From: Candidatus Omnitrophota bacterium | Lineage (GTDB): Bacteria; Omnitrophota; Omnitrophia; Omnitrophales; Aquincolibacteriaceae | Reading direction: 5' to 3' | Assembly: GCA_030698625.1 (NCBI GenBank) | Contig: JAUYMS010000028.1 | Coordinates: 3,854 to 67,853, forward strand | DNA: 64,000 nucleotides | Shown: in pieces, positions 20,963-60,116 of the stretch | How the letters are laid out: each line of letters begins with the position of its first letter | Numbering within the stretch: the first letter of the stretch is position 1 | Program-made: the position numbers and the translations under genes | The notes under the pieces: generated by a model | Told to the model about the DNA's origin: nothing | The model's input: only the letters and a program-made list of their open reading frames with translations | The model's database searches: none

Positions 20963-21265
20963 ATGGAAATCAAAGAGAACGAAATCTATACCCCGAAGGA
21001 AACCCAGGGGTTGCTTAAAGTCAGCGCGAGCACGATGACGCGCCTGATCAAAAGCGGTCTCATTCGTACGGCGAAGGTCGGAAAGCAATATCGCATCATG
21101 GGAAAAGAAATTTTGCGCATGCTGTCTCCCGAATTAGAGGACACGGTGGGCATGTTGTACAACAAGGGGAGGAATTGGGCTCATGAGAATCCCCGGCCGG
21201 AAAAGGCCCCTGAGTCGACTGCAAAAAAACTAAGCGGAGGAAACAGCAATGAATTGGAAAGATAA
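20963..21265 (+). CDS. Excisionase/MerR-family helix-turn-helix DNA-binding protein, 100 aa
   Basis: 'TPKETQGLLKVSASTMTRLIKSGLIRTAKVGKQYRI' HTH_17-type motif. Overlaps pseB by 17 nt. Confidence 0.65.
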   Translation: MEIKENEIYTPKETQGLLKVSASTMTRLIKSGLIRTAKVGKQYRIMGKEILRMLSPELEDTVGMLYNKGRNWAHENPRPEKAPESTAKKLSGGNSNELER

Positions 21266-25914: not shown

Positions 25915-26477
25915 GCATCCTAAGCGAAACTCAGAATAAATTGCGCGGCAAAAAGTTCAATCTGCGCCCGCTAGTCGTCGCAGACGTTTCGGACGCATAT
26001 ATAGGCTGGCTCAATGACCCGGTTGTGAATCAGTTTCTTGAAGCAAGATTTTCAAAACAGAGCACCGAAACGGCGCGTGCCTATGTTGCGGGTTATTACG
26101 AGGGTGGCGAGAAATATATTTGGGGAATTTATCCTCAAGGATCTAAAGACTTCATCGGAACGGCGACGCTTAGTGAGATTCGACCGGAGCACGGATGGGG
26201 AGAAATCGGACTGCTGATCGGAGATAAGCTTTTTTGGGGCAAAAATGCTTCAACGGAGGCGCTGGATTTAGTCGTCAAGTTCGGTTTTCAGGTCTTGAAG
26301 CTCCGGCGGCTCACCGGGGGCAGTTACGCACCAAATCTTGGTATGAACTTTACTTTTAAGCGTTGCGGTTTCCGCTGCGAGGCGAAATTGGTTCGGGCCT
26401 ATCGGCTAGGCGAGAATCAGTACGTCGACGGTTACCGTTGGGGCTTGTTGGCAGAGGAATGGAGGGAACGCAAGTGA
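25911..26477 (+). CDS. GNAT-family N-acyltransferase (RimL-like)
   Basis: GNAT fold motifs. ATGA overlap with pseI. Confidence 0.7.
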   Translation: MSILSETQNKLRGKKFNLRPLVVADVSDAYIGWLNDPVVNQFLEARFSKQSTETARAYVAGYYEGGEKYIWGIYPQGSKDFIGTATLSEIRPEHGWGEIGLLIGDKLFWGKNASTEALDLVVKFGFQVLKLRRLTGGSYAPNLGMNFTFKRCGFRCEAKLVRAYRLGENQYVDGYRWGLLAEEWRERK

Positions 26478-28270
26478 ACGCCATATTCGATGCCCTCAAG
26501 CCGACGCCTGCGTCCTATCTAAAAGCAGAACGGGAGATTTCGACGGGAAAGGAGGGCTCGCTCAGGCATGTGCGCGTTGCCGTGCTTGGGACTTTCACGA
26601 CAAACTATTTGAAGCCTTATCTTACTGTAGAGGGCGCGCGCCGCGGATTGTCGATTGATGCCTATTTCGGTCCGTTTAACCAAATGGAGCAGGAAACCCT
26701 TGATGAATCGAGTGCGCTCTATCAGTTCGACCCCGACGTTGTGATTGTTGCCTCGCGCCTGGAAGAAATGACGCCCGATCTGGTAAACCGGTTCTTGAAG
26801 TTAAGCGCAGAGGAAATCGATGCTCTCGGTGAGCGTTCTCTGGAGCGCTTACGGGCGCTTCTGCAGGCTGTGCGGCAGAAGACGGCCGCCACAGTTCTTC
26901 TATTTAACTTTGCGCCGCCGTCGCTGCTCAACGCGGGTCTGGCAGATGCGGGAATGGTAGATTCGCAGACCGCTGTGATTTCGCGGCTCAACGGGAGCTT
27001 GGCGCGAGTGGCCGGAAGTCTGAGCGGGGTTTTTGTTTTTGATTTGGCTCGCGTCATTACCGAGGTCGGGATTCGGAGGGCATTTGATGCCAAGCTCTGG
27101 CATATGGCACGACTCCCGTTTAGCGTGGATGCCCAGATTGCGATCGGGGAGCGTTTGGCTCGTACAATTCGTGCTGCGGTTTTGCCGCCGTGTAAATGTC
27201 TCGCCGTCGATCTGGATAATACGCTATGGGGCGGTGTGGTTGGGGAGGACGGCCTCGGAGGGATTGCGCTCGGAGATGAATGCCCGGGCAATGCTTATAA
27301 GGATTTCCAGCGCGAATTGCTTTCTCTGCGCGATCGCGGCGTGTTGTTGGCTATTGCGAGCAAGAATAACGAGGACGACGCGCTGGCCGTATTCGACAAA
27401 CACCCGGACTGTCTTTTAAAGCGAGAGCATTTTGCTGCAACGCAGATTCACTGGGGGGATAAGGCGGAAAGTTTGCTTGCGATTGCTCAGGAACTCAATT
27501 TGGGGCTCGACTCGGTGGCGTTCCTCGATGACAGCCCTGCAGAAAGGGAGTGGGTGCGCATGAAAATGCCGGAAGTCCTGGTCTTGGATTTTCCGGCAGG
27601 ACCGCCGACTTTTCGAACGATCGAGGAGTCGGGTGCCTTTGACCAACTTGTCATATCCGGAGAGGATCGAGAGAGGACGATTTTTTACCAGCGCGAGAGT
27701 GAAAGGTCGAAGCTGCAAACCCAAAGTGTTTCATTAGAAGAATTCCTGGGGGACCTCGATATTACGGTATCCATCGGTCAAGTGGATAACGATACGCTGC
27801 CTCGCGTCGCTCAGCTCGTAGGAAAGACAAATCAATTCAATCTGACCACGCGGCGGCATACCGAAGGGGCCATTTCAGACATGCTTAGCCGGGGTTGCAT
27901 CGCGCTTTGGATGCGCGTTAAGGACCGCTTCGGTGACTACGGACTGGTGGGGGTTGCGTTGGCGATGCCGTTAACAGCAAAGCGTTGGGAAATTGATACG
28001 TTTCTACTCAGCTGCCGCATGATCGGACGCCGCGCCGAAGATGCGCTTCTGGCTGTTCTGATCAGGCAGATTAGCGCCCGGGGAGGGGAAGTGGTTGAGG
28101 GGGTGTATATCCCCACAGCCAAGAATGCGCAGGTTAAAGCCTTTTTCCCCGCACGCGGCTTTCGGGTATGTGGGACGGAAACCGACCGCTGGGAGTGGGA
28201 TCTTTCTCAGGGGAGCTATCTCGCGCCGGATCTTTTGAAAGTGAGATTTGATGATGAGTCCGATGACTGA
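26459..28270 (+). CDS. FkbH-like HAD-superfamily (IIIC) domain protein
   Basis: 'CLAVDLDNTLWGGVVGEDG' HAD motif I typical of FkbH. About 600 aa with a C-terminal GNAT-like domain. Confidence 0.75.
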   Translation: MEGTQVNAIFDALKPTPASYLKAEREISTGKEGSLRHVRVAVLGTFTTNYLKPYLTVEGARRGLSIDAYFGPFNQMEQETLDESSALYQFDPDVVIVASRLEEMTPDLVNRFLKLSAEEIDALGERSLERLRALLQAVRQKTAATVLLFNFAPPSLLNAGLADAGMVDSQTAVISRLNGSLARVAGSLSGVFVFDLARVITEVGIRRAFDAKLWHMARLPFSVDAQIAIGERLARTIRAAVLPPCKCLAVDLDNTLWGGVVGEDGLGGIALGDECPGNAYKDFQRELLSLRDRGVLLAIASKNNEDDALAVFDKHPDCLLKREHFAATQIHWGDKAESLLAIAQELNLGLDSVAFLDDSPAEREWVRMKMPEVLVLDFPAGPPTFRTIEESGAFDQLVISGEDRERTIFYQRESERSKLQTQSVSLEEFLGDLDITVSIGQVDNDTLPRVAQLVGKTNQFNLTTRRHTEGAISDMLSRGCIALWMRVKDRFGDYGLVGVALAMPLTAKRWEIDTFLLSCRMIGRRAEDALLAVLIRQISARGGEVVEGVYIPTAKNAQVKAFFPARGFRVCGTETDRWEWDLSQGSYLAPDLLKVRFDDESDD

Positions 28271-28505
28271 AGACAGGCTTTGCCGGGTCCTTGCCGAAGT
28301 ATTCGGTGTGCCGGCGGAACAGATTAACGAAGACAGCAGCCCGGATACCATCGAGAATTGGGATTCCGCATCGCATATCAATATGATCTTGTCTCTTGAA
28401 TCGGAGTTCGATGTGAAGCTGACCCCCGAGCATGCCATGGAGATGTTGTCGGTAAAGCTCATTCGGATGATTTTGGAAGAGCTCGGGGTTAAAGATTTCA
28501 AATGA
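28248..28505 (+). CDS. Acyl carrier protein
   Basis: 85 aa. 'ENWDSASHINMILSLE' phosphopantetheine-attachment Ser context. Confidence 0.7.
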   Translation: MMMSPMTEDRLCRVLAEVFGVPAEQINEDSSPDTIENWDSASHINMILSLESEFDVKLTPEHAMEMLSVKLIRMILEELGVKDFK

Positions 28506-29683
28506 AGACAGCCGTCCGGTCACAATATGAAGTAGGCCAGGTATTTCGGACCAGCATCGATGTGGACCAGAAACTGGTCGAACGGTTTGCCGATTTTTCC
28601 GGCGACCGTAATCCGCTTCATATGGACGCAGGCGAAGCTCAGTCTTACGGGTATGCGCGCAGGGTTGCGCACGGGGGAATCCTCATCGCCTTTTTATCAA
28701 AACTGATCGGTATGGAAATCCCCGGACCGGGAGCGGTGTGGATGAACCAGCAGGTGGATTGGACAAGTCCGGTGTTTGTCGGAGATGTCGTGGAATTGGC
28801 TGTGACCGTCGAGAAAATATCGACCGGCGCGGGAATGCTTACGCTGGATGTCACGGCGGCAAATCAGAAAGGGAAGACGGTTATGAAAGGGAAAGCGAAT
28901 GTTAAGGTTGCGGAAAAGATCGAGCAGAAAAGTGCTCAAAAAAAAAGCGTGAAGACGGCCCTCGTAACGGGTAGCGGCCGCGGTATCGGCGCAGAGATAG
29001 CTCGCAAACTGGCGGCAAGCGGGGTGAAGGTTATCGTCAATTGTCGCAAGTCGGTTCACGAGGCTGAGGGGGTTCAGCAGGAGATCAGGGCCTTGGGCGG
29101 CACAGCGGAAGTGATGCAGGCAGATCTCTCGGACTATGCGCAGACGGAAGCGATGATCGATAGCATTATTAAGCAATTCGGTAGTTTGGATATTGTGGTG
29201 CATGGCGCGTCGCCTATGGTCACTCCGGCGATGGCCGATCAAGTGACGCAGGAGCGGCTCGATCATTTTTTTAGGGCTTATGTCGGAGGGGCCAGGAGTC
29301 TTGTCGCAAAGGCGGCGCCTGCGATGGCGGAGAGAAAATTTGGGCGCTTCATTTTCTTGGGAACGTCGTTCATGTTTGGAATCCCTCCGGCAGGCATGAG
29401 TGCTTACGTTACCGCAAAGGAAGCCTTGTGGGGATATGTGAAGTGTCTGGCCGCAGATCTCGGGCCGTCGGGCATTACATCCAATATGGTCTCTCCGAGC
29501 ATGACGGTCACTGATTTTACCGCCGATATTCCGGCTCGCATGAAAGAGCTCGAGGCACGGAAGAGTCCGATGCGACGCATGGCTTCCGTGGCAGATACCG
29601 CAGCAGCCGTGGTTTTCTTGGCGGGCGAGGATGCGTCTTATATTAACGGCAGCAATCTGCCGGTCACCGGAGGGCCCATTTGA
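28502..29683 (+). CDS. MaoC-like hot-dog dehydratase fused to FabG-like SDR reductase
   Basis: N-terminal hot-dog region 'GDRNPLHMD...'. C-terminal 'ALVTGSGRGIGAEIARKLAASG' SDR. Confidence 0.75.
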   Translation: MKTAVRSQYEVGQVFRTSIDVDQKLVERFADFSGDRNPLHMDAGEAQSYGYARRVAHGGILIAFLSKLIGMEIPGPGAVWMNQQVDWTSPVFVGDVVELAVTVEKISTGAGMLTLDVTAANQKGKTVMKGKANVKVAEKIEQKSAQKKSVKTALVTGSGRGIGAEIARKLAASGVKVIVNCRKSVHEAEGVQQEIRALGGTAEVMQADLSDYAQTEAMIDSIIKQFGSLDIVVHGASPMVTPAMADQVTQERLDHFFRAYVGGARSLVAKAAPAMAERKFGRFIFLGTSFMFGIPPAGMSAYVTAKEALWGYVKCLAADLGPSGITSNMVSPSMTVTDFTADIPARMKELEARKSPMRRMASVADTAAAVVFLAGEDASYINGSNLPVTGGPI

Positions 29684-30681
29684 GCCAAGCTATCGAGCAA
29701 ACCAGGGTACTGGTAAGCGGTTGCGGATCGATCGGTAAGCGGCATATCGCAAACTTGCAAGCGCTGGGGCTCTCCGCGATTACGGCAGTAGACCCGGATA
29801 AGAGCGCTTGCATGGAGGCCGAGCGAAAACTTGGCGTCCGGATAGCGGTCTCTTTTGAGGAAGCTCTTCGGGAGCGGCCCGACATTGTTGTCGTGGCCAG
29901 CCCCAATCACGTGCACATGGAACAGGCATTGCAAGCGGCGAAGGTTGGCGCGGACCTTTTCATCGAGAAACCTCTATCTCATGAAATGACCGGTGTCAAC
30001 GAGCTCTTGACTTACGTGGAGCAGAACCGGCTTGTGGGTATGGTGGGTTGCAATATGCGTTTTCATCCGGCGATCTCGAAGATAAAAGAGGTCCTGTCCG
30101 AGCAAAAACTAGGCAAGGTCTATTCCGTTCAAGCCGAGTTTGGCTTTTATTTGCCATGGTGGAGGCCGGGCAAGGACTACCGTGAAAATTACGGCGCCAG
30201 AAAAAGGACGGGCGGAGGTGTGATTCTTGATGCCATCCATGAAATCGATGCCTTGTGGTGGTTTTTTGGCCCCGTTCGCCAGGCAATGACGTTGTCGCAG
30301 AAGCAAAGTGATCTCGAAATTGAAACTGAGGACGTGGCGGAAATCTCGCTCAGGTTTGCAAACGGTGTGCTGGGGCATATTCACCTGGACTATCTTAACC
30401 GCCATTATGCACGTAACCTTAAAATTATCGGCAAGCAGGGGACGCTCGAGTGGGACTGGAACCAGGAATTCATACGGATCTTTCGCGAAGGGGACAGCCC
30501 GGCCGAGGAGTATGCGGTGCCCGCTCGTGAGAACCCGAACGAAATGTATCGTGATGAAATGCGCCATTTTCTCAGCTGCGTGGCAGAAAGAAAAACTACG
30601 ATTTGTCCGATTGAGGATGCGGCTGAAGTTCTGAGCGTGGCGATGTCGGCAAAAAGATCTTCAGAGATGGTACCGCAATGA
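29680..30681 (+). CDS. Gfo/Idh/MocA-family oxidoreductase
   Basis: 'VLVSGCGSIGKRHI' Rossmann fold and 'EKPL' motif. Confidence 0.75.
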   Translation: MSQAIEQTRVLVSGCGSIGKRHIANLQALGLSAITAVDPDKSACMEAERKLGVRIAVSFEEALRERPDIVVVASPNHVHMEQALQAAKVGADLFIEKPLSHEMTGVNELLTYVEQNRLVGMVGCNMRFHPAISKIKEVLSEQKLGKVYSVQAEFGFYLPWWRPGKDYRENYGARKRTGGGVILDAIHEIDALWWFFGPVRQAMTLSQKQSDLEIETEDVAEISLRFANGVLGHIHLDYLNRHYARNLKIIGKQGTLEWDWNQEFIRIFREGDSPAEEYAVPARENPNEMYRDEMRHFLSCVAERKTTICPIEDAAEVLSVAMSAKRSSEMVPQ

Positions 30682-31523
30682 AAAAGAGTATTTTTGTCCA
30701 GGCCCGGATGGGATCAAGCCGATTGCCCGGAAAGGTGATGGCGGATCTCTTCGGGCGCCCGCTTCTCGAGCGTCTGGTGGAGCGGCTGCGGCGATCGACG
30801 AGCGCAGATCAAGTGGTGGTGCTTACTAGCAGTGCGGAAGCGGATCAAGCGATTGAGGACTTGGCATATGCAATGGACGTTCCCGTTTTCCGGGGCGACG
30901 AAGATGATGTGTTAGACCGTTATTTTCAAGCGGCAAAGAAGTTTCAGCCGGATGCCATTATCCGCGTCACAGGGGATTGCCCTCTGATTGACCCAAGAGT
31001 CATTGACCAGGTTGCGTCTTTTTTTGAAACGGAAGACCGGGATTATGTGAGCAATATCCTTATCCCGACTTTTCCCGACGGGTTGGATGTGGAGATTTTT
31101 AGGATTGAGGCGCTCGAGAGCTGCTGGCGTAACGCGCGGGAAAAGTACCAGCGCGAGCATGTGACGTCGTACTTCTACGAAAACCCGGACCTCTTTCGTC
31201 TGGCTAATTTCCGGTCCCCTGTCGATCGTTCCGCTATGCGCTGGCTAGTCGACGAGGCTCCGGATCTCGTGTTTGTGCGAAAAGTGTATGAGCGTCTTTA
31301 TCCGGATAACGCAACATTTTTATACGCCGACATTCTTGCCCTTTTGGACCGCGAGCCGGAATTACAGACATTGAATGCGCACCTGCGCAGGAACGAAGGA
31401 TTTTTTAAGAGTAAAGACGGAGCGTCGGCCCATGCGGCGGAAGATGCGCGTTCCGGCTGGGCGCGCTATATCCAAGAAATTATGCAGAAAAAGGGATGTG
31501 AGCTATATGAATCTGTCGGTTGA
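30678..31523 (+). CDS. pseF: CMP-nonulosonic acid cytidylyltransferase (acylneuraminate cytidylyltransferase / SpsF family)
   Basis: 'VQARMGSSRLPGKVMADLFGRPLL' N-terminal signature. Confidence 0.75.
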   Translation: MKKSIFVQARMGSSRLPGKVMADLFGRPLLERLVERLRRSTSADQVVVLTSSAEADQAIEDLAYAMDVPVFRGDEDDVLDRYFQAAKKFQPDAIIRVTGDCPLIDPRVIDQVASFFETEDRDYVSNILIPTFPDGLDVEIFRIEALESCWRNAREKYQREHVTSYFYENPDLFRLANFRSPVDRSAMRWLVDEAPDLVFVRKVYERLYPDNATFLYADILALLDREPELQTLNAHLRRNEGFFKSKDGASAHAAEDARSGWARYIQEIMQKKGCELYESVG

Positions 31524-32799
31524 CGGGTTGAAGGAATCGGTTGCGTTGTGGAAAAAGGCCGCGGACTTGATCCCCGCAGGAACCCAAACGCTCAGTAAGG
31601 CGCCCAATCAATTTGTTGAAGGGGTTTACCCGAAATTCATCGAGCGGGGTAAGGGAAGCCATGTCTGGGATGTTGACGGTAACGAGTATATCGATTACCC
31701 GTTATCACTAGGCGCTGTTTTACTGGGTCACTGCTACCCGGTGGTGGATAAGGCGATTACAGACCAGCTGAAGAAGGGGATCGTTTTTTCGTTGATGCAC
31801 CGGTTGGAAGGTGAAGTCGCCGAGCGGGTTCGCGCGCTGGTTCCTTGTGCCGAGCAGGTGCGGTTTTCAAAGACAGGCTCGGAGGTGACTACGGCGGCCG
31901 TGCGTGTTGCGCGTGCGGCGACGGGCCGTAAGAAGATTGCCTACTGCGGGTATCACGGATGGCATGATTGGTATGCCGTGACCACCACACGTTCCAAGGG
32001 GATTCTTCCCGAACTTTCGGAGTACATGCTCCCTTTTACCTATAACGACATTACGACACTGGAAAGGATTTTTCAGGAGAACCCCGATGAGATTGCGGCG
32101 ATCATCATGGAGCCGGTTGGGCTTGAGGCCCCGAAAGGGGATTTTCTTAACAGTGTCCAGAAATTGACGAAACAACACGGCAGTCTGCTTATCTTTGACG
32201 AAATGATCACGGGTTTCCGCATGGCGAGGGGCGGGGCCCAAGAATATTATGGAATAACCGCGGACCTGGCGACCTTCGGGAAGTCGGTTGCCAACGGAAT
32301 GCCGCTCAGTATCTTGGCGGGTAGGAAGCAATTCATGAAAGAATGCGAAGAGATCTTTTTTTCCACAACATTCGGAGGCGAGGCATTATCTCTGGCGGCT
32401 GCGCGTGCGGTCTTGGATGAGATCGTTGAAAAGCCAGTGGTGGCTCATCTGTGGACTCAGGGGAGGAAATTAAAAGACGGTTTTGCACAACTTGCGGCGG
32501 AAACCGGAGTGCAAGCCGCGTTTTCAGGGTTTCCGGTTCGGCAGTTTCAGGTATTTAGGGATGCTGAGGGCGAAATCTCTACAATTCATAAAGCTCTGTT
32601 CTGGCAGGAAACGATCAAGCGTGGTGTGCTTTTCGGAAACGCTCAAATGATTTCATATTCGCATTCTGACGAAGACATCAAACGCACTCTGGAAGTGTGC
32701 GGAGAAGCCCTGCATGTTGTAGGGTGCGCCGAAAGAGAAGGCCGTTTGGAAACGGCTATGGAAGGAAAACTTCCTACAGAGATATTCAGAAAGCCCTGA
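31507..32799 (+). CDS. Class III PLP aminotransferase (glutamate-1-semialdehyde aminomutase-like)
   Basis: The signature region of glutamate-1-semialdehyde aminomutase-type class III PLP aminotransferases ('YCGYHGWHDWY'). Internal ATG 31507 chosen as start. Confidence 0.7.
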   Translation: MNLSVDGLKESVALWKKAADLIPAGTQTLSKAPNQFVEGVYPKFIERGKGSHVWDVDGNEYIDYPLSLGAVLLGHCYPVVDKAITDQLKKGIVFSLMHRLEGEVAERVRALVPCAEQVRFSKTGSEVTTAAVRVARAATGRKKIAYCGYHGWHDWYAVTTTRSKGILPELSEYMLPFTYNDITTLERIFQENPDEIAAIIMEPVGLEAPKGDFLNSVQKLTKQHGSLLIFDEMITGFRMARGGAQEYYGITADLATFGKSVANGMPLSILAGRKQFMKECEEIFFSTTFGGEALSLAAARAVLDEIVEKPVVAHLWTQGRKLKDGFAQLAAETGVQAAFSGFPVRQFQVFRDAEGEISTIHKALFWQETIKRGVLFGNAQMISYSHSDEDIKRTLEVCGEALHVVGCAEREGRLETAMEGKLPTEIFRKP

Positions 32800-32806
32800 G
32801 GAATTC

Positions 32807-33418
32807 ATGATAGCGATTATTGATTATGAAATGGGAAATTTAAAGTCGGTGGCAAATGCCTTTAAGGCCGTGGGTGTTGAGCCCTGCATTACACGTGATC
32901 CGTCTGAGCTTTCAGCGGCGGATCGGATTGTTTTGCCGGGGGTTGGCGCATTCGGCAACGGAATGGAGCGGCTTCGACGATTGGGTTTTGTCAGGGCCTT
33001 GGAGGAAAACGTCCGAGAGAAAAAGAAACCCTTCTTGGGTATTTGCCTTGGGATGCAGCTTCTGGCAACCAAAGGTTTTGAGTTCGGAGAGCATGCAGGG
33101 CTGGGCTGGATTGAGGGAGAGGTCCGCAGACTCGAATCCCCGGACTTGCCCGTGCCGCATGTCGGATGGAATGACGTGGCTGTCACACAGTCGTCGCCGC
33201 TGCTCGAGGGGATAGGCGATAAAGCCGACTTCTATTTTGTTCACAGTTATCATTTCGAAGCAGCGCAACCCGATAGCGTTACAGCCACTTGTGAGTACGG
33301 TCAACGCTTCGCAGCGAGCGTGAGCCATGGGAATATCTTTGGGGTCCAGTTTCATCCCGAGAAGAGTCAGAAGGCCGGTAAACATTTGCTCGAAAACTTC
33401 CTGAGGATCAGCGCGTGA
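32807..33418 (+). CDS. HisH-like class I glutamine amidotransferase subunit
   Basis: 'MIAIIDYEMGNLKSV' plus the Cys-His-Glu triad context. Sits in a sugar locus, not a his operon. Confidence 0.8.
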   Translation: MIAIIDYEMGNLKSVANAFKAVGVEPCITRDPSELSAADRIVLPGVGAFGNGMERLRRLGFVRALEENVREKKKPFLGICLGMQLLATKGFEFGEHAGLGWIEGEVRRLESPDLPVPHVGWNDVAVTQSSPLLEGIGDKADFYFVHSYHFEAAQPDSVTATCEYGQRFAASVSHGNIFGVQFHPEKSQKAGKHLLENFLRISA

Positions 33419-34236
33419 AGAAAAACCGTTTAATCCCTGTACTCCTTTTGAAGAACGGCTGGCTGGTACAGAGCAAATCATTCCAGCGTTATCAGAATCT
33501 AGGCGACCCGATTACATCTGTTCGGCGCCTGAGTAATTGGGCGTCAGACGAGCTCATCTTTTTGGATATGACGCGAGAGGGAGGCTATGACATGCGTCGG
33601 GATGACAAAGGCCACCCGAATCGGCATGATATCCTGGAGATTATCGAAGACGTTTCTAAGGAATGCCTAATGCCGATTGCAATCGGCGGGCGCATTAGAA
33701 CGCTTACGGATATTATGGTAAGGCTGGCGTCGGGCGCCGACAAGGTTTGCGTTAATACGAAACCGTTGGAGGACCCCGCGTTTATTACCGAAGCCGCGAG
33801 GGAATATGGGTCCCAATGCATTATCATTTCGATCGACGCGAAGGTTTCGGGCGAGGGGCGGTGGGAGGTCTATAAGGACGGCGGCAAGGTCGCGACAGGA
33901 CGGGACCCGGAGTCTTGGGCACGTGAAGTGGAATCGCGCGGTGCCGGCGAAATTCTGATCAATTGTATTGACCGCGACGGTGCGCGTACCGGCTACGATC
34001 TGGATCTCGTAGGCCGCGTCAGTGATGCCGTGAGTATTCCGGTGATTGCCATGGGCGGCGTTGGGGAGTGGGAGCATTTTGCCGAAGCGCTGAGCCGCAC
34101 AAAGGCGGATGCGGTCGCGGCTGCGAACATCTTTCATTACTATGATCAGAGCGTCTATTTGGCAAAGAAGTACCTGCACGACCGGAACTTCAACGTGCGC
34201 GCTCCGGACCTCATACCCGTTGAAGTGACAACGTGA
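33415..34236 (+). CDS. HisF-like cyclase/synthase subunit
   Basis: 'LIPVLLLKNGWLVQSKSF' (beta/alpha)8 HisF-like N-terminus. Confidence 0.8.
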   Translation: MKKNRLIPVLLLKNGWLVQSKSFQRYQNLGDPITSVRRLSNWASDELIFLDMTREGGYDMRRDDKGHPNRHDILEIIEDVSKECLMPIAIGGRIRTLTDIMVRLASGADKVCVNTKPLEDPAFITEAAREYGSQCIIISIDAKVSGEGRWEVYKDGGKVATGRDPESWAREVESRGAGEILINCIDRDGARTGYDLDLVGRVSDAVSIPVIAMGGVGEWEHFAEALSRTKADAVAAANIFHYYDQSVYLAKKYLHDRNFNVRAPDLIPVEVTT

Positions 34237-35273
34237 CTTCGATAACAGATCCCAAGCCTAACGATGCATGCGCCCCGCTCCGGGAGTCCGCTATTCGCGC
34301 TCCGGAACTCAGGCCGGAGGCACTCGAGTGCCAGGAAAGAGACCGTCAGTTCCTGCTTGCACAGCAGCACCGCTTTGCCGAAGTCGCTTGCCCTGCTTGT
34401 GAAAGTGACAAAAAGACGATCAAGTTTATTAAGGCCGATTTTCATTATTGCAGCTGCTCTGACTGTGCGACCGTGTATATCAGCCCGAGGCCGAGCGCTG
34501 AGCTCTTGGAAGAGTTTTATTCAATTTCAGAGAATTACATTTATTGGAATAAATATATTTTTCCCGACTCCGAGAAGGTCAGACGCGAGCAGATCTTCAT
34601 ACCGCGCGTCAATCGGATTCTGGACATTTGCCGTAAATACAGCGTCGGAAGGGAAGCTATTATGGAAGTGGGGGCGGGCTTTGGCATCTTCTGCGAAGAG
34701 ATGATAAAAAAGAGACAGTTTGAGCGGGTCATCGCCGTCGAGCCTACAGCAGATCTTGCGGCGACATGCCGGTCCAGAGGTCTCGATGTGTTGAATCTGC
34801 CGGTCGAGAAGGTTCAACTTCCAGAGCGCTCACTGGACGTCGTGGTGAGCTTCGAAGTGATCGAGCATCTTTTTTCACCGCGCGACTTCGTAAGGGCTGC
34901 GGCCCGGTTTCTGAAGCCGAAGGGTTTGTTTATTCTTACTTGTCCTAATATTATGGGGTTTGAAACACAAGTCGCGGGCCCTGCGACATGCACCTTTCAC
35001 TACGAACATTTGAATTATTTTCATCCCGGCTCAGTTTCCCGGCTTCTGGCGGATGTCGGGTTCAAGATTCACGAGATCCTGACGCCCGGCGAATTGGATG
35101 TGCAGGTCGTGAAACGTGTTTTTGATTCGGGCGATATCACACTCGAGGATAACCGGTTCTTCCGGATGCTCCTCAGCTCAGGCCGGGATGAAACGCTTAA
35201 CGCATTTCAGCGTTTCCTAGCCGAGAACGGTCTTTCGTCTCATATGTGGATAGTGGCTTCGCGTAATAATTAA
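34233..35273 (+). CDS. Zn-ribbon class I SAM methyltransferase (paralog 3 of 3)
   Basis: 'CPACESD...CSDCATVYISPRP' and 'MEVGAGFGIF'. C-terminal 'GLSSHMWIVASR'. Confidence 0.8.
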   Translation: MTSITDPKPNDACAPLRESAIRAPELRPEALECQERDRQFLLAQQHRFAEVACPACESDKKTIKFIKADFHYCSCSDCATVYISPRPSAELLEEFYSISENYIYWNKYIFPDSEKVRREQIFIPRVNRILDICRKYSVGREAIMEVGAGFGIFCEEMIKKRQFERVIAVEPTADLAATCRSRGLDVLNLPVEKVQLPERSLDVVVSFEVIEHLFSPRDFVRAAARFLKPKGLFILTCPNIMGFETQVAGPATCTFHYEHLNYFHPGSVSRLLADVGFKIHEILTPGELDVQVVKRVFDSGDITLEDNRFFRMLLSSGRDETLNAFQRFLAENGLSSHMWIVASRNN

Positions 35274-35282
35274 GGAGATTCC

Positions 35283-36425
35283 ATGCGTTATTGCAAACGT
35301 TGTGTTTACCCGGAAGTGGCTGTTAACCTTTATTTTGACGAGGACGGGATTTGCAGTGCATGCCGGACATTTGAAAAATTCGAGGCCCTGACGGACGATT
35401 TTTGGATTGAGCGCAAGAAAAAGTTCGAAAGGCTTCTAGAAGAGGCTCGCAGGACCAAATCGATCTACGACTGTATTATTCCGGTCAGCGGCGGCAAGGA
35501 CAGCTATTACCAGACCCATAAGATGGTTACTGAATACGGCCTGAAGCCGCTTTTGGTGACTTATCACGGCAATAATTTCCTGACCGAGGGAGATTATAAC
35601 CGCGACCGCATGCGGCAAGTCTTCGACGCCGATCATTTAGTTTTTGGGCCGAGCGTTCACGTGCTGAAGAAGCTCAACCGCCTATGCTTCCGCAAGATGG
35701 GGGATATGAATTGGCATGCTCACTGCGGCATCTTCACGGTGCCGATTCAGATGGCCGTGCGCTTCGGTGTACCCCTCGTGATATGGGGAGAAACGAATTG
35801 GGACATCTCGGGAATGTACGAACCTGAGGATTTCGTTGAGTTCAGCGCTCGCGTTCGCCACGAGCATGATCTTCGCGGATTCGAATGGTATGACATGATG
35901 AATGACTCTTCCGAAAAGCTGACTGAAAAAGACATGCTGTGGGCCCAGTATCCGTCAGACGAGGAAATTCTGAAGGTGGGAGTTCGGGGGCTCTATGTCG
36001 GAAATTTCTTCAAGTGGGACCCAAACTGGCACGCAAAGATGATTCAGGAAAGGTATGGGTGGAAGCCGATCGAGGGGGTCTTCGAGCGCACGTATCGTTC
36101 GTTTTCAAATCTGGACGACCGCTATGAAAACGGCGCGCACGATTTGCTGAAATATATCAAGTTCGGCTATGGACGTGCCTCTGACCATGGGTCAAAGGAT
36201 ATTCGCATGGGTTATATGACGCGCGAGGAGGGGATCGAAAAAATTCGAAAACATGACCACATCATCCCGAGCGACCTTGATTATTGGTTGGAATATGTGG
36301 GTATGAAGAAGGAGTTGTTTTGGGAAATCGCAAACTCATTTCGCGACAGCCGAGTGTGGCGCCAAGAAGACGGCGTGTGGGTAAAAGATAATATTTGGGA
36401 TGAGGTCGCTTCTGCTGCTAAATGA
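35283..36425 (+). CDS. N-acetyl sugar amidotransferase (PP-loop ATPase; WbpG/WbuZ/PseA-like)
   Basis: N-terminal 'CKRCVYPE....CSAC' Zn ribbon and PP-loop 'IPVSGGKDS'. Confidence 0.8.
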   Translation: MRYCKRCVYPEVAVNLYFDEDGICSACRTFEKFEALTDDFWIERKKKFERLLEEARRTKSIYDCIIPVSGGKDSYYQTHKMVTEYGLKPLLVTYHGNNFLTEGDYNRDRMRQVFDADHLVFGPSVHVLKKLNRLCFRKMGDMNWHAHCGIFTVPIQMAVRFGVPLVIWGETNWDISGMYEPEDFVEFSARVRHEHDLRGFEWYDMMNDSSEKLTEKDMLWAQYPSDEEILKVGVRGLYVGNFFKWDPNWHAKMIQERYGWKPIEGVFERTYRSFSNLDDRYENGAHDLLKYIKFGYGRASDHGSKDIRMGYMTREEGIEKIRKHDHIIPSDLDYWLEYVGMKKELFWEIANSFRDSRVWRQEDGVWVKDNIWDEVASAAK

Positions 36426-38347
36426 GTACACCCGTTAAGTATTACTTTCTAGAAACGTGCTCGCCGCGCTTTACGGAACGGGATGCGAAAGTAATCTCGC
36501 TTACGCCGCAGGTGTCCTACGAGCTTGGCCGGCGTGGTATTCCTTACCGGATCCTGGAAGACTTCTATAGTGAGCGGGATCTACGCAGCGGGGAAGACGA
36601 GTATTTTACTGACCAACTTAACTGGTTTAAGCGATTCGATGCTTTTTTGGGAGAGCACATCGCCTGGTCTTCGAGCGACAGATGTGCGCTGGCGCGTACC
36701 CACTACGACCACCTAAAGTATTTCGTCGACACCATCATCATTCAATCCTACATCTTATCGAAAGTGATTGCGTCGATTGCTCCCGAAAATCCCTCGATCG
36801 AATATATCAAGGCATCGTACTTGAGCGAGCGTAAGCAGACCATGGAGCAATTCCGATACGGGGAGCAATCAACTTTGTTCGCTGAGCTCATGCCCTATGT
36901 TTGCAAGAAATTTCCGAATGTGAAGTTTACGGTTACCTGCGAAGAAGTGACTCCTTCGGACAAGGCAAGCACAACCCCCGGGACAGTCCCTGGATGGTTT
37001 GAGGCCGGCATGCAATACGTCAAGGAGCGCGTTCGAGCCGTTTACTATCCGCTGAAATATCGCTCGTCGTCAAGTGGTGGATCGCCTGCGAATAATCTGC
37101 GTTGTCTCTTCATCCATACGGGGAGCAGGCATCTCGACCCGGTGATCCGCCAATTAATCGGAGCTGGTGCTGTAGTCTATGGCCTGAATGGCGATGCGGC
37201 CTATCGCTTGGACTGTATCCGTCCCGGGCCAAACGATAAGATCAACGCAGCGCAACAGGATGAGTTGAGCGGTGATCTGAAGCGGCAATGCGAGGCGGCC
37301 TCTCGGGAATTGTTCGGAGGAGAAGCCGAGATTGTAAGGTGGATAGAAAATCGATGCGGGCTCCAACTGCGAGACTTTTTACGACCTTACCTCACGGCCT
37401 TTGTGAAAGATGCCCTCTCGGAGACCCTGAAGTTGGCGAACGCATTCAAGCATTTCTACGAGGAAAGGAACATCACTCATGTTTTTAGTCACACCGGCTC
37501 GGATAAGCACTCCCGCGCGGGGATTTTAGGTGCGAAAATGGTTGAGGGCACTATGTCGGTGGGGATACAGCACGGTTGTGAAATATTCGAGGACAAGGTC
37601 TGGGATATTAGGGATATTGATACTTTTGATCATTATCTGGCGACAGACGATTATTCGCAGGAAAAATTCAGGAAGTCCCTGGAGTTTGACTATGTGGGTC
37701 ACCACCGCATCGAGCAGTCGTCGCATTATCTTCAGAGTATTAAGGCGCGGCACGCGGCACTTCCGAGGAGACGGGGATCCGCGAGGAAGTGTTTCCTCTA
37801 TCTGCCGTCCAAGCTGTCCGTACACCGGCGCTGTTTTAACAGCATGGTTTATCCGGTTCTGTGGTACTACGAGTTTCAAAAGAATCTCTTAGATTTTATG
37901 GGAAGCCAGGCCGCGGAATACGACTTCATTTACAAACAAGCCCCTGCGAGGAATCCGTATGCCAAGGAATCCGTTATACGCTATTTACACGACCGTCAAT
38001 TTAGTAACATTAGGGTGGAAACGGCACCTCCCGTTGAATTCTTCAACACCGTAGACGGGGTTATCATGGACCGTGCCACGACAGCCTTTTTTGAAGCGGC
38101 TGTTTGCAACGTCCCGACTCTGGTCATCTATCCTTCTTTCATGGGCGAGATCATCAATGAAATGACAAGCGCGGAAAATAGGCGATGCACCGCGTCATTT
38201 TCTTCCTGGGAAGAAGCCTTTCGGAACATCGCGGAGTTCATCAGAGAGCCCTCGCGTAGACATACCCCTAAACTCAGCCTCACGAAGGACAGTGTCGTGG
38301 ATGCCGTAGCGAAGATGTCGGCAAATATCCTGGGATCCTCTGTGTAG
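36422..38347 (+). CDS. Hypothetical 641-aa soluble protein, candidate glycosyltransferase (GT-B-like C-terminal half)
   Basis: No motif I can assign confidently. Sits between pse/acetamidino genes and the flippase. The C-terminal 'VIMDRATTAFFEAAVCNVPTLVIYPSF' resembles GT-B / capsule-synthesis family donor-binding segments. Confidence 0.4.
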   Translation: MSTPVKYYFLETCSPRFTERDAKVISLTPQVSYELGRRGIPYRILEDFYSERDLRSGEDEYFTDQLNWFKRFDAFLGEHIAWSSSDRCALARTHYDHLKYFVDTIIIQSYILSKVIASIAPENPSIEYIKASYLSERKQTMEQFRYGEQSTLFAELMPYVCKKFPNVKFTVTCEEVTPSDKASTTPGTVPGWFEAGMQYVKERVRAVYYPLKYRSSSSGGSPANNLRCLFIHTGSRHLDPVIRQLIGAGAVVYGLNGDAAYRLDCIRPGPNDKINAAQQDELSGDLKRQCEAASRELFGGEAEIVRWIENRCGLQLRDFLRPYLTAFVKDALSETLKLANAFKHFYEERNITHVFSHTGSDKHSRAGILGAKMVEGTMSVGIQHGCEIFEDKVWDIRDIDTFDHYLATDDYSQEKFRKSLEFDYVGHHRIEQSSHYLQSIKARHAALPRRRGSARKCFLYLPSKLSVHRRCFNSMVYPVLWYYEFQKNLLDFMGSQAAEYDFIYKQAPARNPYAKESVIRYLHDRQFSNIRVETAPPVEFFNTVDGVIMDRATTAFFEAAVCNVPTLVIYPSFMGEIINEMTSAENRRCTASFSSWEEAFRNIAEFIREPSRRHTPKLSLTKDSVVDAVAKMSANILGSSV

Positions 38348-38349
38348 TC

Positions 38350-39882
38350 ATGAAGACATCAAGCGGTGGTCGCGCGCGAATCGCCAAGGATGCGGGTTTG
38401 TATCTAGCCGGATCTTATGGCGCTCAGTTCTTTGATATCATTAACGGAATTCTTATCCGGCGATTTCTCGGACCGGAGAATATGGGCATCTGGGCGTTCC
38501 TTCAGGTAATTTTGAATTACGCGAAGCATTCGGCGCTGGGTGTTACGGCGGCAACATCAAGAGATGTGCCGTATTACCGCCGCAAAGGTGAAAATGACAA
38601 GGCCGAACGCGTTAAGAACATGGTGTTTAGTTTCACGGTTGTTACAGCTACGTTAGCCGGGCTGGGGGTTATCGTCTATGCGTTGATGAATCGAGATAAA
38701 TATGATACCCCATTCTTTTTCGGCCTTGTGGTAATAGGAATCCTTATCGTCTTGCAGCGTCTGTTTAATCTCCACATAGTTCTGCTGCGCGCCCTCAAGG
38801 AATTTGCATTCGCCTCTACGGCCAATGTTTGTTCTAGTGTGCTTACGGTCCTGTTCACGGTGAGTTTGGTTTGGCGTTTCGGGCTCTATGGTCTTTTTGC
38901 AGGGCTTATCTTGAACTATATCCTGATGATTGCCGGCATCAGCATTAAATCGGGAATTCGTTTCCGTTTTATTTTCCGATTCGGGGAGTTGTCTCCGATA
39001 TTTAGCCTTGGTTTTGCCATGTTGGTATACGGTGTACTCACAACGATTTTGATGAGTGTGGACCGTATCATGATTACGAAGTATATGGGTTTTGAGGCTC
39101 TCGGGATTTACAGTATCGCGCTGATGGCGGGCAATTATCTTTTTAGTTTGCCGACAATGCTGGCCGTGGCTTTCTCCCCGTATTTACAAGAGGCCTATGC
39201 GGAAAGAGATGTCGCGAAGGATCTGGAGAAATTCCTCGTGGTGCCGACACTGGTGATTGGGTATCTTTTTCCGTGCCTCATCGCTCTTGTGTGGGTGGTG
39301 TCGGACTGGCTCATTCCGTTGCTTTTGCCCGCCTATGTCGCCGGCATTCCTGCCCTTAAGTGTCTTATCCTAAGCAGCTTTTTTCGAGGCCTCTTGCACC
39401 CGTTTCTTTCTTTTTTTGTGACAGTTCGAAAACACTGGCACCTATGCCCTATCCAGGGATTTCTGGCACTCTTATGCTTCGGGCTGACTTGGGCCTTTAT
39501 GAAGAGCGGGATGGGATTGCTGGGGGTGGCTCTCGCAAGCGTGATTACGTACGGATTGGGGTTTGGGCTTATTTCGGCCTATTGCTATCGGCGAATCCAG
39601 TCTTTGAAGAAGGCTCTTGGGATTTACATCAGGATATTCGGTGTGTTTGTTTATTTTTCGGGCGCACTGTACCTCATGGACTCTTATGCACAGACTTTTC
39701 CTCCGACGATACTTCGGTTTTCTTTGCAGTTTGCAGTGTTCATGGTGCTGATGCTGCCGTGGATATTTCTGGCGGAGAGGGAAACGAAAGCCTTAACGAC
39801 GCTAAGGGCGGTTGTGAAGAGTTGGCTCGAGAAGCGTGCTAACCGGGGAAACCCTTCAGTTCCGAACGAAGAAAGTCAATAA
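38350..39882 (+). CDS. Wzx-like oligosaccharide flippase (polysaccharide biosynthesis protein, MOP superfamily)
   Basis: About 14 predicted TM helices. N-terminal 'RIAKDAGLYLAGSYGAQF' is typical of Wzx proteins. Confidence 0.75.
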   Translation: MKTSSGGRARIAKDAGLYLAGSYGAQFFDIINGILIRRFLGPENMGIWAFLQVILNYAKHSALGVTAATSRDVPYYRRKGENDKAERVKNMVFSFTVVTATLAGLGVIVYALMNRDKYDTPFFFGLVVIGILIVLQRLFNLHIVLLRALKEFAFASTANVCSSVLTVLFTVSLVWRFGLYGLFAGLILNYILMIAGISIKSGIRFRFIFRFGELSPIFSLGFAMLVYGVLTTILMSVDRIMITKYMGFEALGIYSIALMAGNYLFSLPTMLAVAFSPYLQEAYAERDVAKDLEKFLVVPTLVIGYLFPCLIALVWVVSDWLIPLLLPAYVAGIPALKCLILSSFFRGLLHPFLSFFVTVRKHWHLCPIQGFLALLCFGLTWAFMKSGMGLLGVALASVITYGLGFGLISAYCYRRIQSLKKALGIYIRIFGVFVYFSGALYLMDSYAQTFPPTILRFSLQFAVFMVLMLPWIFLAERETKALTTLRAVVKSWLEKRANRGNPSVPNEESQ

Positions 39883-50067: not shown

Positions 50068-50075
50068 CGAGCGTC

Positions 50076-60106: not shown

Positions 60107-60116
60107 GCCGAGGAAA

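Follow-up and report, generated by a model that had tools for sequence, protein, structure and literature searches.

Two probable tailoring modules in a pseudaminic acid operon of an uncultured Candidatus Omnitrophota bacterium

In Campylobacter, the amidotransferase genes are arranged in the order pseA (Cj1316c), hisH (Cj1315c) and hisF (Cj1314c) (PMC12102941). A PP-loop and a CxxC...GxCxxC motif are features of the N-acetyl sugar amidotransferase (NASAT) family (PMC10607449), and acetimidoyl formation with subsequent N-methylation has a precedent in PtmG and PtmH (PMC13317340; bioRxiv 10.64898/2026.04.20.719630). Transfer of legionaminic acid in B. subtilis requires SpsF (PMC7439481). An oxidoreductase, a cytidylyltransferase and a class III aminotransferase occur together in Aeromonas flagellin glycosylation islands with no function assigned (PMC7874193), and a Legionella LPS cluster contains an aminotransferase-cytidylyltransferase pair (PMC3694923).

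Here, we describe a locus that contains genes of both kinds, within a 64-kb stretch of DNA (the window) from an uncultured Candidatus Omnitrophota bacterium. The five ORFs at 31507-36425, which the original prediction had read as acetamidino machinery plus a class III aminotransferase, are all intact on the plus strand. We read this span as parts of two independent tailoring modules inside one pseudaminic acid (Pse) operon, with the reactions proposed below, at a probability of about 0.6.

The pseudaminic acid operon

The genes from PseB to Wzx form one tightly packed Pse operon (Table 1), in which neighbours overlap or are spaced by 7-9 nt. Promoter- and terminator-like sites within it were no more frequent than in shuffled sequence. 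PseB, PseC, PseG-GNAT and PseI are NCBIfam equivalogs that also have Pfam matches, and the predicted set of HisH, HisF-like protein and PP-loop amidotransferase of the acetamidino type thus lies in a genuine Pse operon. The GNAT, FkbH-like, ACP and MaoC-SDR genes that follow the core genes constitute an acyl-carrier tailoring module, which is kept in three related loci (L081, L082 and L008).

Table 1. Genes of the Pse operon, with positions in the window.
Feature	Position	Strand	Evidence
PseB	21249-22235	+	NCBIfam equivalog, 521 bits (cut-off 407.75)
PseC	22228-23385	+	NCBIfam equivalog, 466.9 bits (cut-off 423.5)
PseG-GNAT fusion	23385-24872	+	PseG NCBIfam equivalog, 209.3 bits (cut-off 153.55)
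PseI	24820-25914	+	NCBIfam equivalog, 456.2 bits (cut-off 340.25)
GNAT, acyl-carrier tailoring module	25896-26477	+	Pfam
FkbH-like	26363-28270	+	TIGR01686, 288 bits (cut-off 146.65)
ACP	about 28260-28505	+	PP-binding Pfam, E 8e-6
MaoC-dehydratase/SDR fusion	28502-29683	+	Pfam
GFO/IDH/MocA oxidoreductase (GFO)	29680-30681	+	PF01408, PF22725, PF02894
SpsF-type cytidylyltransferase	30678-31523	+	PF02348 (CTP_transf_3), E 3e-37
Class III GSA-aminomutase-like PLP aminotransferase	31507-32799	+	PF00202, E 1e-51
HisH-type glutaminase	32807-33418	+	TIGR01855, 256 bits (cut-off 105)
HisF-like barrel, WbuZ/HisF2 type	33415-34236	+	PF00977, E 9e-52
Zn-ribbon and class I SAM methyltransferase	34233-35273	+	PF13489; between HisF-like gene and WbuX
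NASAT (WbuX/WbpG/PseA family)	35283-36425	+	TIGR03573, 314 bits (cut-off 203)
Uncharacterised 641-aa GT-B-fold protein	36422-38347	+	AF2 model, Foldseek
Wzx/MOP-type flippase, closes operon	38350-39882	+	PF13440, PF01943

In the two closest relatives by gene order (L081 and L082), synteny with this operon extends from PseB as far as the aminotransferase and resumes at Wzx. Identities are 45-77%, apart from PseC (46-47%), PseGH (36-38%) and Wzx (29-30%). The four genes from HisH to WbuX are absent from both relatives. These genes bear no compositional sign of foreign origin, with a GC content of 0.519 against 0.523 for the whole window.

The 641-aa protein that follows WbuX had no Pfam or NCBIfam match, while a full HMMER search found 462 representatives. 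Its AF2 model (pLDDT 89.3, pTM 0.91) resembles GT-B glycosyltransferases and 2-epimerases in Foldseek, including a polysialyltransferase. A homologue in L171 is encoded near a 50%-identical WbuX and immediately upstream of Wzx, and Wzx follows the transferase-like gene in L081, L082 and L171 alike. The modelled fold and this context mark the 641-aa protein as a candidate for the transferase that acts on the tailored sugar.

The amidotransferase cassette

The genes for HisH, the HisF-like barrel, the methyltransferase and WbuX (32807-36425) constitute a widespread, self-contained four-gene cassette, which probably makes an acetamidino or N-methylacetamidino group. HisH retains Cys80, His183 and Glu185, and the Shine-Dalgarno sequence of its gene (GAGGA) overlaps the stop codon of the aminotransferase. 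The HisF-like protein scores below the cut-offs of both WbuZ (TIGR03572, 262 bits against 299.7) and hisF (238 bits against 294.55). Judging from its alignment with solved HisF, it lacks one catalytic aspartate of the cyclase, as Leu11 takes the position of Asp11 and the second aspartate is kept (Asp141). WbuX has the PP-loop SGGKDS at residues 69-74 and the family's cysteine motif (C4xxC7, G22xC24xxC27), and the solved Legionella NASAT 8wex matches it with an E-value of 2.8e-31. In the proposed reaction, HisH would hydrolyse glutamine as the source of ammonia, with the HisF-like barrel as its partner and as the conduit for ammonia. The PP-loop enzyme of the WbuX family would use ATP to activate an N-acetyl carbonyl of Pse, probably in its CMP-bound form, and exchange the carbonyl oxygen for NH to give an acetamidino group.

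The methyltransferase carries CPAC at residue 53 and CSDC at residue 75, and is 100% identical to a protein from a Candidatus Omnitrophota MAG. It had been described as a paralog inserted in the amidotransferase triad. It is a paralog, 37% identical over its full length to the product of the ORF at 18178-19164, and it does lie between the HisF-like gene and WbuX, but it is a regular fourth member of the cassette rather than an insertion. This follows from 35 metagenomic loci (9 kb or longer) that encode a homologue of the methyltransferase, in which a WbuX homologue adjoins it in 33 and HisH, HisF and PseI recur in 29, 28 and 26, respectively. The commonest order across these loci is HisH-HisF-WbuX-methyltransferase (for example L089 and L090). 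Where a WbuX homologue is encoded beside the methyltransferase, its identity to the WbuX of the window is 42-71% (mostly 49-71%); other WbuX copies are 24-36% identical to it. By analogy with PtmG and PtmH, which act on legionaminic acid, the linked methyltransferase would most likely N-methylate the amidine.

It is possible, although we consider it doubtful, that the enzyme instead O-methylates a hydroxyl or the acyl side chain of Pse. Its Pfam class (Methyltransf_23/11) gives no acceptor atom, O-methylation is known from nonulosonates, as are O-methylglyceroyl groups (bioRxiv 10.64898/2026.04.20.719630), and the paralog in the window is encoded away from any amidotransferase. However, FkbH was detected in none of the 35 loci, which together with the adjacency of WbuX connects the methyltransferase with the amidino step and not with an acyl side chain, and the PtmG/PtmH precedent also favours the amidine.

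The aminotransferase and its partners

The aminotransferase belongs with the oxidoreductase and cytidylyltransferase encoded upstream, separately from the amidotransferase cassette. Its ATG at 31507 is preceded by a Shine-Dalgarno sequence (AAGGGA) and its PLP lysine lies in FGK (residues 257-259). Homologues are numerous (7855 with E<=1e-20); of the best 120, about 37 are fused to a cytidylyltransferase. The 42 full-length loci with a homologue all contain an SpsF-type cytidylyltransferase, and 41 contain NeuB; the amidotransferase triad or FkbH/ACP accompanies it in just two. Conversely, the aminotransferase is missing from all 35 methyltransferase loci, so that it is not part of the acetamidino machinery; its constant partners are a cytidylyltransferase, NeuB and an oxidoreductase. 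However, a GFO homologue was detected by BLAST in just 10 of the 42 loci, and the others have an SDR, an aldo-keto reductase or no detected oxidoreductase. GFO adjoins the cytidylyltransferase-aminotransferase pair in L084, L085, L086 and L088. In the window, the GFO stop and cytidylyltransferase start overlap by 4 nt (ATGA), and in L081 and L082 the two enzymes form a single protein of 601-602 aa; such oxidoreductase-cytidylyltransferase fusions are common.

The cytidylyltransferase, which does adjoin the aminotransferase, had been taken for PseF. As a PseF equivalog it was rejected (TIGR03584, 25 bits against a cut-off of 205.7); it is SpsF-type, lies closest among solved structures to 6oew ('Cytidylyltransferase', E = 2.5e-40), and is the sole candidate for a CMP-nonulosonate synthetase in the window. 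It would form the CMP-sugar. GFO would most likely oxidise a hydroxyl of the nonulosonate, either as the free sugar or in its CMP-bound form, and the aminotransferase would in turn most likely replace the new carbonyl with a further amino group. Sugar C-6' aminotransferases are among the solved relatives of the latter. This extra amine may then receive an acyl group from the upstream GNAT/FkbH/ACP module. Against this, a natural Pse derivative that carries a third amine, on the ring or on the chain, is not known to us.

Alternatively, GFO and the aminotransferase could act in the core route, adding no third amine, by making or epimerising either of the two canonical amino positions in another way or by processing a precursor before the NeuB condensation. 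The trio occurs extremely widely in Pse clusters that are otherwise minimal, and the Aeromonas subgroup IA islands have it without PseH (PMC7874193). In Bacteroidota and Ignavibacteria (type B loci), the aminotransferase is found alongside a split transketolase, an SDR and a HAD phosphatase instead of PseB and PseC, which suggests that its substrate may be a precursor rather than a finished nonulosonate. We nevertheless consider a core role unlikely, since a complete set of PseB, PseC, PseG-GNAT and PseI is already in place in the window and in its relatives. Moreover, Pse clusters of the cassette type rely on the same SpsF-type cytidylyltransferase and do without the aminotransferase and mostly without GFO (present in 3 of 35), which indicates that the pair is dispensable for CMP-Pse.

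The original prediction had proposed an acyl-ACP substrate. Here, an ACP-bound keto- or aldehyde-acyl group would be aminated with the help of FkbH, ACP and MaoC-SDR and then moved to Pse by the GNAT, similar to the aminotransferase domain of mycosubtilin synthase, which is among the solved relatives of the aminotransferase (E = 2e-46). Within the operon, these genes are 1-5 kb upstream of the aminotransferase, and they recur with it in L081, L082 and L008. This route is improbable, however, given the rarity of FkbH or ACP across the 42 loci as against the cytidylyltransferase and NeuB. In addition, fusions among the matches listed join the aminotransferase to a cytidylyltransferase and never to a carrier-protein enzyme.

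The wider window and known systems

The window encodes many additional sugar enzymes, including a nucleotide-sugar dehydrogenase, a second GFO enzyme, two further DegT aminotransferases and several epimerases and dehydratases. The cassette might therefore act on another N-acetyl sugar of the 64-kb island, such as an N-acetylhexosaminuronic acid or FucNAc, just as the substrates of WbpG and WbuX are sugars other than nonulosonates (PMC10607449). We consider this very improbable: the cassette is embedded in the closely packed Pse operon, its homologues adjoin PseI in 26 of 35 loci, and the dehydrogenase at 11203-12543 matches UDP-glucose 6-dehydrogenases and not UDP-GlcNAc/ManNAc dehydrogenases. 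That the aminotransferase is a hemL paralog supplying 5-aminolevulinate for tetrapyrroles can be dismissed on context and scores: although its best NCBIfam (PRK06209) and PDB matches are glutamate-1-semialdehyde aminomutases, it stays below every hemL cut-off (PRK06209, 398.6 bits against 486; TIGR00713, 271.6 against 527.3; PRK00062, 285.5 against 398), the scanned window ORFs of at least 150 aa include no tetrapyrrole gene, and its homologues are found together with NeuB and a cytidylyltransferase. The description of this enzyme as GSA-aminomutase-like and without a role in canonical Pse chemistry is supported.

A Campylobacter-like arrangement had also been proposed, yet the order here is hisH-hisF-methyltransferase-wbuX, unlike pseA-hisH-hisF in Campylobacter. 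An ORF scan of the window found no flagellar, flagellin or maf genes; it encodes the Wzx flippase and GT-C-type membrane transferases. In its proposed chemistry, the four-gene cassette is analogous to Campylobacter PtmG/PtmH, which form an N-methylacetimidoyl group on legionaminic acid. The span thus combines machinery of known kinds with a very widespread, uncharacterised nonulosonate enzyme, the class III aminotransferase.

Pseudaminic acid operon and its flanking genes

The five genes encoding the class III aminotransferase, HisH, the HisF-like protein, the methyltransferase and the WbuX-family amidotransferase are all intact and on the + strand, which confirms the gene set of the original prediction. 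Exact matches of proteins assign the source to a Candidatus Omnitrophota metagenome-assembled genome. The five genes are part of a single long and compact operon, in which genes overlap by 4-17 nt or are separated by gaps of 7-9 nt. The operon starts at its 5' end with the core genes of pseudaminic acid (Pse) synthesis, PseB, PseC, a PseG-GNAT fusion and PseI, each scoring above its NCBIfam equivalog cut-off. These are followed by a GNAT, an FkbH-like protein, an 85-aa acyl carrier protein (ACP) and a MaoC/SDR fusion, and then by a GFO/IDH/MocA (GFO) oxidoreductase and a CTP_transf_3 cytidylyltransferase that lead into the five genes. At the 3' end are a 641-aa protein and a Wzx-type flippase. 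Scans for promoters and terminators yielded candidate sites at a frequency not above that in shuffled sequence.

Coordinates of the operon and of other features of the window
Feature	Position	Strand	Match
B12-binding radical SAM enzymes (two)	5101-6405 and 60033-61937		
Zinc-ribbon methyltransferase copy	18178-19164		
Operon	21249-39882		
GNAT, FkbH-like protein, ACP, MaoC-dehydratase/SDR fusion	25896-29683		
Class III aminotransferase	31507-32799	+	PF00202, E 1e-51
HisH	32807-33418	+	TIGR01855, 256.2 bits vs cut-off 105.4
HisF-fold protein	33415-34236	+	PF00977, E 9e-52
Class I SAM methyltransferase with N-terminal zinc ribbon	34233-35273	+	
WbuX-family N-acetyl sugar amidotransferase	35283-36425	+	TIGR03573, 314.3 bits vs cut-off 203.2
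641-aa protein	36422-38347		No Pfam or NCBIfam match
Flippase-to-heptose-like-gene segment	39839-44683		
E1 dehydrogenase alpha- and beta-like subunits on either side of an FAD oxidoreductase	49099-52338		

Outside the operon, the window holds numerous further genes for glycan enzymes, YfhO- and PMT-type membrane transferases among them. The radical SAM enzymes lie inside this glycan island, and together with the E1-like/FAD oxidoreductase set they are possible further sugar-tailoring chemistry. The locus had been likened to the Campylobacter flagellin-glycosylation locus. This likeness does not extend to the gene order, which differs, and neither flagellar or maf domains nor flagellin, maf or tetrapyrrole genes were found in the scanned window ORFs of at least 150 aa and the 85-aa ACP ORF.

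The cytidylyltransferase next to the aminotransferase had been called pseF. It scores 25.3 bits against the PseF equivalog TIGR03584 (cut-off 205.7) and is instead an SpsF-type CTP_transf_3 enzyme. As it is the sole cytidylyltransferase of its superfamily in the window, and as many complete Pse clusters, whether or not they carry the aminotransferase, have this type alone, it probably makes the CMP-sugar, which is the job of PseF. SpsF is needed for legionaminic acid transfer in B. subtilis (PMC7439481), and an SpsF-type enzyme has been proposed to stand in for NeuA in a Vibrionaceae cluster (PMC7371886).

A word-index search with the 641-aa protein returned 2 homologues and a full HMMER search 462 representatives; His384, Lys505 and Glu558 are invariant. 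The AF2 model built from 48 sequences (pLDDT 89.3, pTM 0.91; a model from 3 sequences with pLDDT 42 was discarded) has a GT-B fold, with structural matches to glycosyltransferases, UDP-GlcNAc 2-epimerases and a polysialyltransferase. In a metagenomic contig (L171), a homologue is found near a WbuX that is 50% identical to that of the window and directly upstream of a flippase. The 641-aa protein is a candidate CMP-nonulosonate transferase for the tailored sugar, from an undescribed family.

A four-gene amidotransferase cassette

The amidotransferase set clearly belongs with the known NASAT/HisH/HisF2 sets. The TIGR03573 match of WbuX covers residues 1-350 of 380, and the protein matches the solved Legionella NASAT (PDB 8wex) with E 2.8e-31. 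Both features that define NASATs (PMC10607449) are present, namely the PP-loop SGGxDS (SGGKDS, residues 69-74) and the tetracysteine motif CxxC-Xn-[GN]xCxxC (C4KRC7 and G22IC24SAC27). HisH has kept its triad, with Cys80 in GICLGMQ and His183 and Glu185 in FHPEKS. The HisF-like gene overlaps the HisH gene by 4 nt, and the amidotransferase gene is in the same cassette. The HisF-like protein scores below all three equivalog cut-offs, those of WbuZ (262.4 vs 299.7), AglZ/HisF2 (214.3 vs 310) and hisF (238.3 vs 294.55), where TIGR03572 and NF038364 are the WbuZ/HisF2 partner profiles. In the alignment, Leu11 occupies the position of the cyclase Asp11, and the second Asp is kept as Asp141. As Leu11 replaces Asp11 and the scores are below the hisF and WbuZ cut-offs, the HisF-like protein would fit a role as partner or ammonia conduit rather than in histidine synthesis.

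The original prediction described an acetamidino triad into which a methyltransferase paralog was inserted. The set is present, the methyltransferase gene lies between those of the HisF-like protein and WbuX, and the paralogy is confirmed by 37% identity over the full length to the zinc-ribbon copy. That copy has a GT2 glycosyltransferase on one side and a PMT_2 membrane transferase on the other, with no amidotransferase nearby. The methyltransferase of the cassette is, however, a regular fourth member. We retrieved 80 metagenomic loci with methyltransferase homologues (43-51% identity) and counted homologues of the other genes on the 35 that are at least 9 kb long. WbuX is present in 33 of these and adjoins the methyltransferase in all 33, and HisH (29/35), the HisF-like protein (28/35) and PseI (26/35) are also frequent. 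The same linkage is seen for two independently picked methyltransferase homologues (L089 and L090). The most frequent order is HisH-HisF-WbuX-methyltransferase, beside PseG/PseI, so that the last two genes are reversed in the window. WbuX copies beside the methyltransferase are 42-71% (mostly 49-71%) identical to the window WbuX, and second WbuX copies and copies in aminotransferase loci are 24-36% identical to it. The locus counts, the usual order and the WbuX identities therefore reveal a four-gene cassette rather than a triad with an intruder. Beyond PtmG/PtmH, we know of no description of a NASAT set that is regularly paired with this methyltransferase family, as four genes tied to a Pse synthase.

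Two divergent WbuX-family amidotransferases accompany one methyltransferase in several compared loci (L123, L139, L141, L145, L147, L148 and L166), one copy being 24-36% and the other up to 55% identical to the window WbuX. Such loci may place two amidino groups on one sugar.

The two closest aminotransferase relatives (66-67% identity) are found in loci L081 and L082, which are syntenic with the window from PseB to the aminotransferase and again from the flippase into heptose-like genes. Both are wholly without the cassette; there, the aminotransferase is immediately followed by a 616-634-aa protein with weak capsule-synthesis and sialyltransferase-like matches, and then by the flippase. The composition of the cassette gave no signal of foreign origin (GC 0.519 vs 0.523 for the window), so an insertion could be read from this comparison only. 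As the next (transferase) gene differs as well, the comparison points to a variable segment and not a clean insertion. The segment from the flippase to the heptose-like genes also differs between relatives (compared with L081 14687-16169): it holds two GDSL-family proteins and a YfhO-like membrane protein in the window, and a methyltransferase and a CDP-alcohol phosphatidyltransferase in L081 and L082.

In the proposed mechanism, HisH would release ammonia from glutamine, WbuX would adenylate an N-acetyl carbonyl of Pse and swap its oxygen for NH, and the methyltransferase would methylate the WbuX product. The Campylobacter enzymes appear to introduce the amidino group at the level of the CMP-sugar (PMC5378307); PtmG builds an acetimidoyl group on legionaminic acid, which PtmH, encoded next to it, then N-methylates to give Leg5AmNMe7Ac (PMC13317340; bioRxiv 10.64898/2026.04.20.719630). 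From this analogy and the linkage to WbuX, we infer that the methyltransferase of the cassette N-methylates the amidine. The best 120 homologues of this enzyme carry generic names only, and methylation of an oxygen instead is an unlikely but serious alternative when set against that linkage. The cassette, with its strong linkage to genes for Pse synthase, could account for (N-methyl)acetamidino Pse across many lineages that are uncultured. Nonulosonic acids such as Pse are present on flagella, S-layers, capsules and LPS, where they affect immune recognition and phage susceptibility. Very few enzymes that tailor them are known (PMC5378307).

The aminotransferase module and its possible product

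The aminotransferase had been grouped with the acetamidino machinery, and the loci separate the two: none of the 35 cassette loci carries an aminotransferase homologue, and the amidotransferase triad is present in 2 of the 42 full-length genome loci with such a homologue. The companions of the aminotransferase in these 42 loci are a cytidylyltransferase (42), a NeuB-family synthase (41), PseB (11), GFO (10) and FkbH/ACP (2). A hemL paralog, the identity that would have spoken for tetrapyrrole synthesis, is excluded on scores, all below cut-off (TIGR00713 271.6 vs 527.3, PRK00062 285.5 vs 398, PRK12389 232.6 vs 637), and on family context, which is NeuB and cytidylyltransferase (41-42/42) and not tetrapyrrole.

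Among the candidates scored, 7855 aminotransferase homologues were found at E<=1e-20, and solved relatives include sugar C-6' aminotransferases. About 37 of the best 120 homologues are fusions with a CTP_transf_3 cytidylyltransferase, and in L081 and L082 the GFO and cytidylyltransferase form a single 601-602-aa protein. Two settings can be told apart for the family. The first consists of Pse-type clusters with PseB, PseC, GFO, cytidylyltransferase, aminotransferase, PseI and PseG; one such cluster is flanked by flagellin genes, and some relatives of the aminotransferase module, such as L084, are flagellar. The second, in Bacteroidota/Ignavibacteria, consists of cytidylyltransferase, split transketolase, aminotransferase, SDR, HAD phosphatase and NeuB. 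A conserved cassette of this second setting, with an SpsF-type cytidylyltransferase, a NeuB that has no SAF domain and no PseB or PseC, is found in Hymenobacter setariae (L073, 6993-14161) and in ~30 similar Bacteroidota/Ignavibacteria/Chlorobi loci. It resembles a pathway to an amino-ulosonic acid that has yet to be characterised.

From the fusions, oxidoreductase and aminotransferase would both work close to the cytidylyltransferase step; most simply, GFO would oxidise a hydroxyl and the aminotransferase would then transaminate. Pse lacks a primary hydroxyl, so that a secondary alcohol, at C4 or C8, would have to be oxidised. Together with FkbH/ACP, the additional GNAT might attach an acyl group to the newly formed amine or put one in place of an N-acetyl group. 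The module of GNAT, FkbH, ACP and MaoC-SDR is conserved in L081, L082 and a further compared locus, L008, and by analogy with Pse5Am7Gra of Tannerella could be the source of a hydroxyacyl N-substituent, of the glyceroyl or another type. The window is unusual in holding both the cassette and the aminotransferase module (0/35 and 2/42 co-occurrence), and it has an FkbH/ACP acylation module as well. We infer the substrates of both modules, and give a probability of about 0.2 to the full reading, in which GFO and the aminotransferase act on the C4 or C8 hydroxyl of (CMP-)Pse, the resulting third amine is acylated by GNAT/FkbH/ACP, and the product, with the action of the cassette, is a triamino nonulosonic acid, a class not yet described.

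A core-pathway or precursor role of the aminotransferase is rather unlikely, given the complete Pse clusters that do without it. An acyl-ACP as its substrate, for which the window does hold FkbH and ACP genes, is improbable given the scarcity of these genes in the aminotransferase loci. It is likewise improbable that the cassette targets a non-Pse N-acetyl sugar: in the segment considered for a ManNAc3NAcA-type pathway that could provide one (11203-13559), the dehydrogenase matches UDP-glucose 6-dehydrogenases.

If the triamino reading is true, such nonulosonic acids would be common, as the aminotransferase family has thousands of bacterial and archaeal members. The trio of GFO, cytidylyltransferase and aminotransferase is a widespread 'known unknown' module, found across thousands of genomes, those of Aeromonas and Legionella pathogens among them, and often as one fused protein. 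Assigning its reaction would annotate a very large family now mislabelled glutamate-1-semialdehyde aminomutase.

Comparison with known systems

The cassette resembles Campylobacter PseA/HisH/HisF (Cj1316c-Cj1314c) in having an amidotransferase of the same family with HisH/HisF-like partners in a nonulosonate locus, and PtmG/PtmH in having a methyltransferase gene beside the amidotransferase gene. It differs in order, which is pseA-hisH-hisF in Campylobacter (PMC12102941) and hisH-hisF-methyltransferase-wbuX in the window, and in setting, as the window has Pse as its sugar and an operon of the Wzx type for a surface glycan, without flagellin or maf genes. With the NASAT systems of E. coli O145 (WbuX/WbuY/WbuZ), P. 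aeruginosa (WbpG with HisH2/HisF2), Legionella (LpNASAT, 8wex) and archaea (AglX/Y/Z), it shares TIGR03573, SGGKDS, the tetracysteine zinc motif and an adjacent glutaminase and HisF-like partner. Unlike the window cassette, none of these has been described with an obligatory linked methyltransferase. Their substrates are FucNAc, ManNAc3NAcA, legionaminic acid or an archaeal N-glycan sugar (in part from PMC10607449).

Tannerella forsythia has a surface-glycan Pse with acetimidoyl and glyceroyl groups, Pse5Am7Gra, but pseA/ptmG homologues are reported absent there (PMC5378307), whereas the window has a NASAT cassette. In principle, this cassette and the FkbH/ACP/GNAT module could make such a product.

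For Kdo8N, Gattis et al. in 2013 reportedly described oxidation by KdnB and transamination by KdnA, followed by CMP activation by a cytidylyltransferase. As proposed for the trio, an ulosonic acid hydroxyl is thus oxidised, transaminated and CMP-activated. Unlike GFO, KdnB is an iron alcohol dehydrogenase, and the sugar, an acid of eight carbons, does have a primary alcohol. The oxidase role of KdnB in Shewanella is described in PMC5125639.

In Aeromonas group I flagellin glycosylation islands, the pse genes enclose pseF together with genes for an aldo-keto reductase and a class III aminotransferase (PMC7874193), and the Legionella serogroup 6/12 LPS cluster encodes PseG, a 'glutamate-1-semialdehyde aminomutase', a cytidylyltransferase, HisF, HisH and a WbpG-like gene (PMC3694923). 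The aminotransferase gene was noticed in both literatures without an explained function. These systems differ from the window in having an aldo-keto reductase instead of GFO, and their glycans are flagellar or O-antigen. Like the window, both Aeromonas group I and L. pneumophila Sg6/Sg12 have the aminotransferase by a cytidylyltransferase inside pse genes, with a reductase (aldo-keto or other) alongside.
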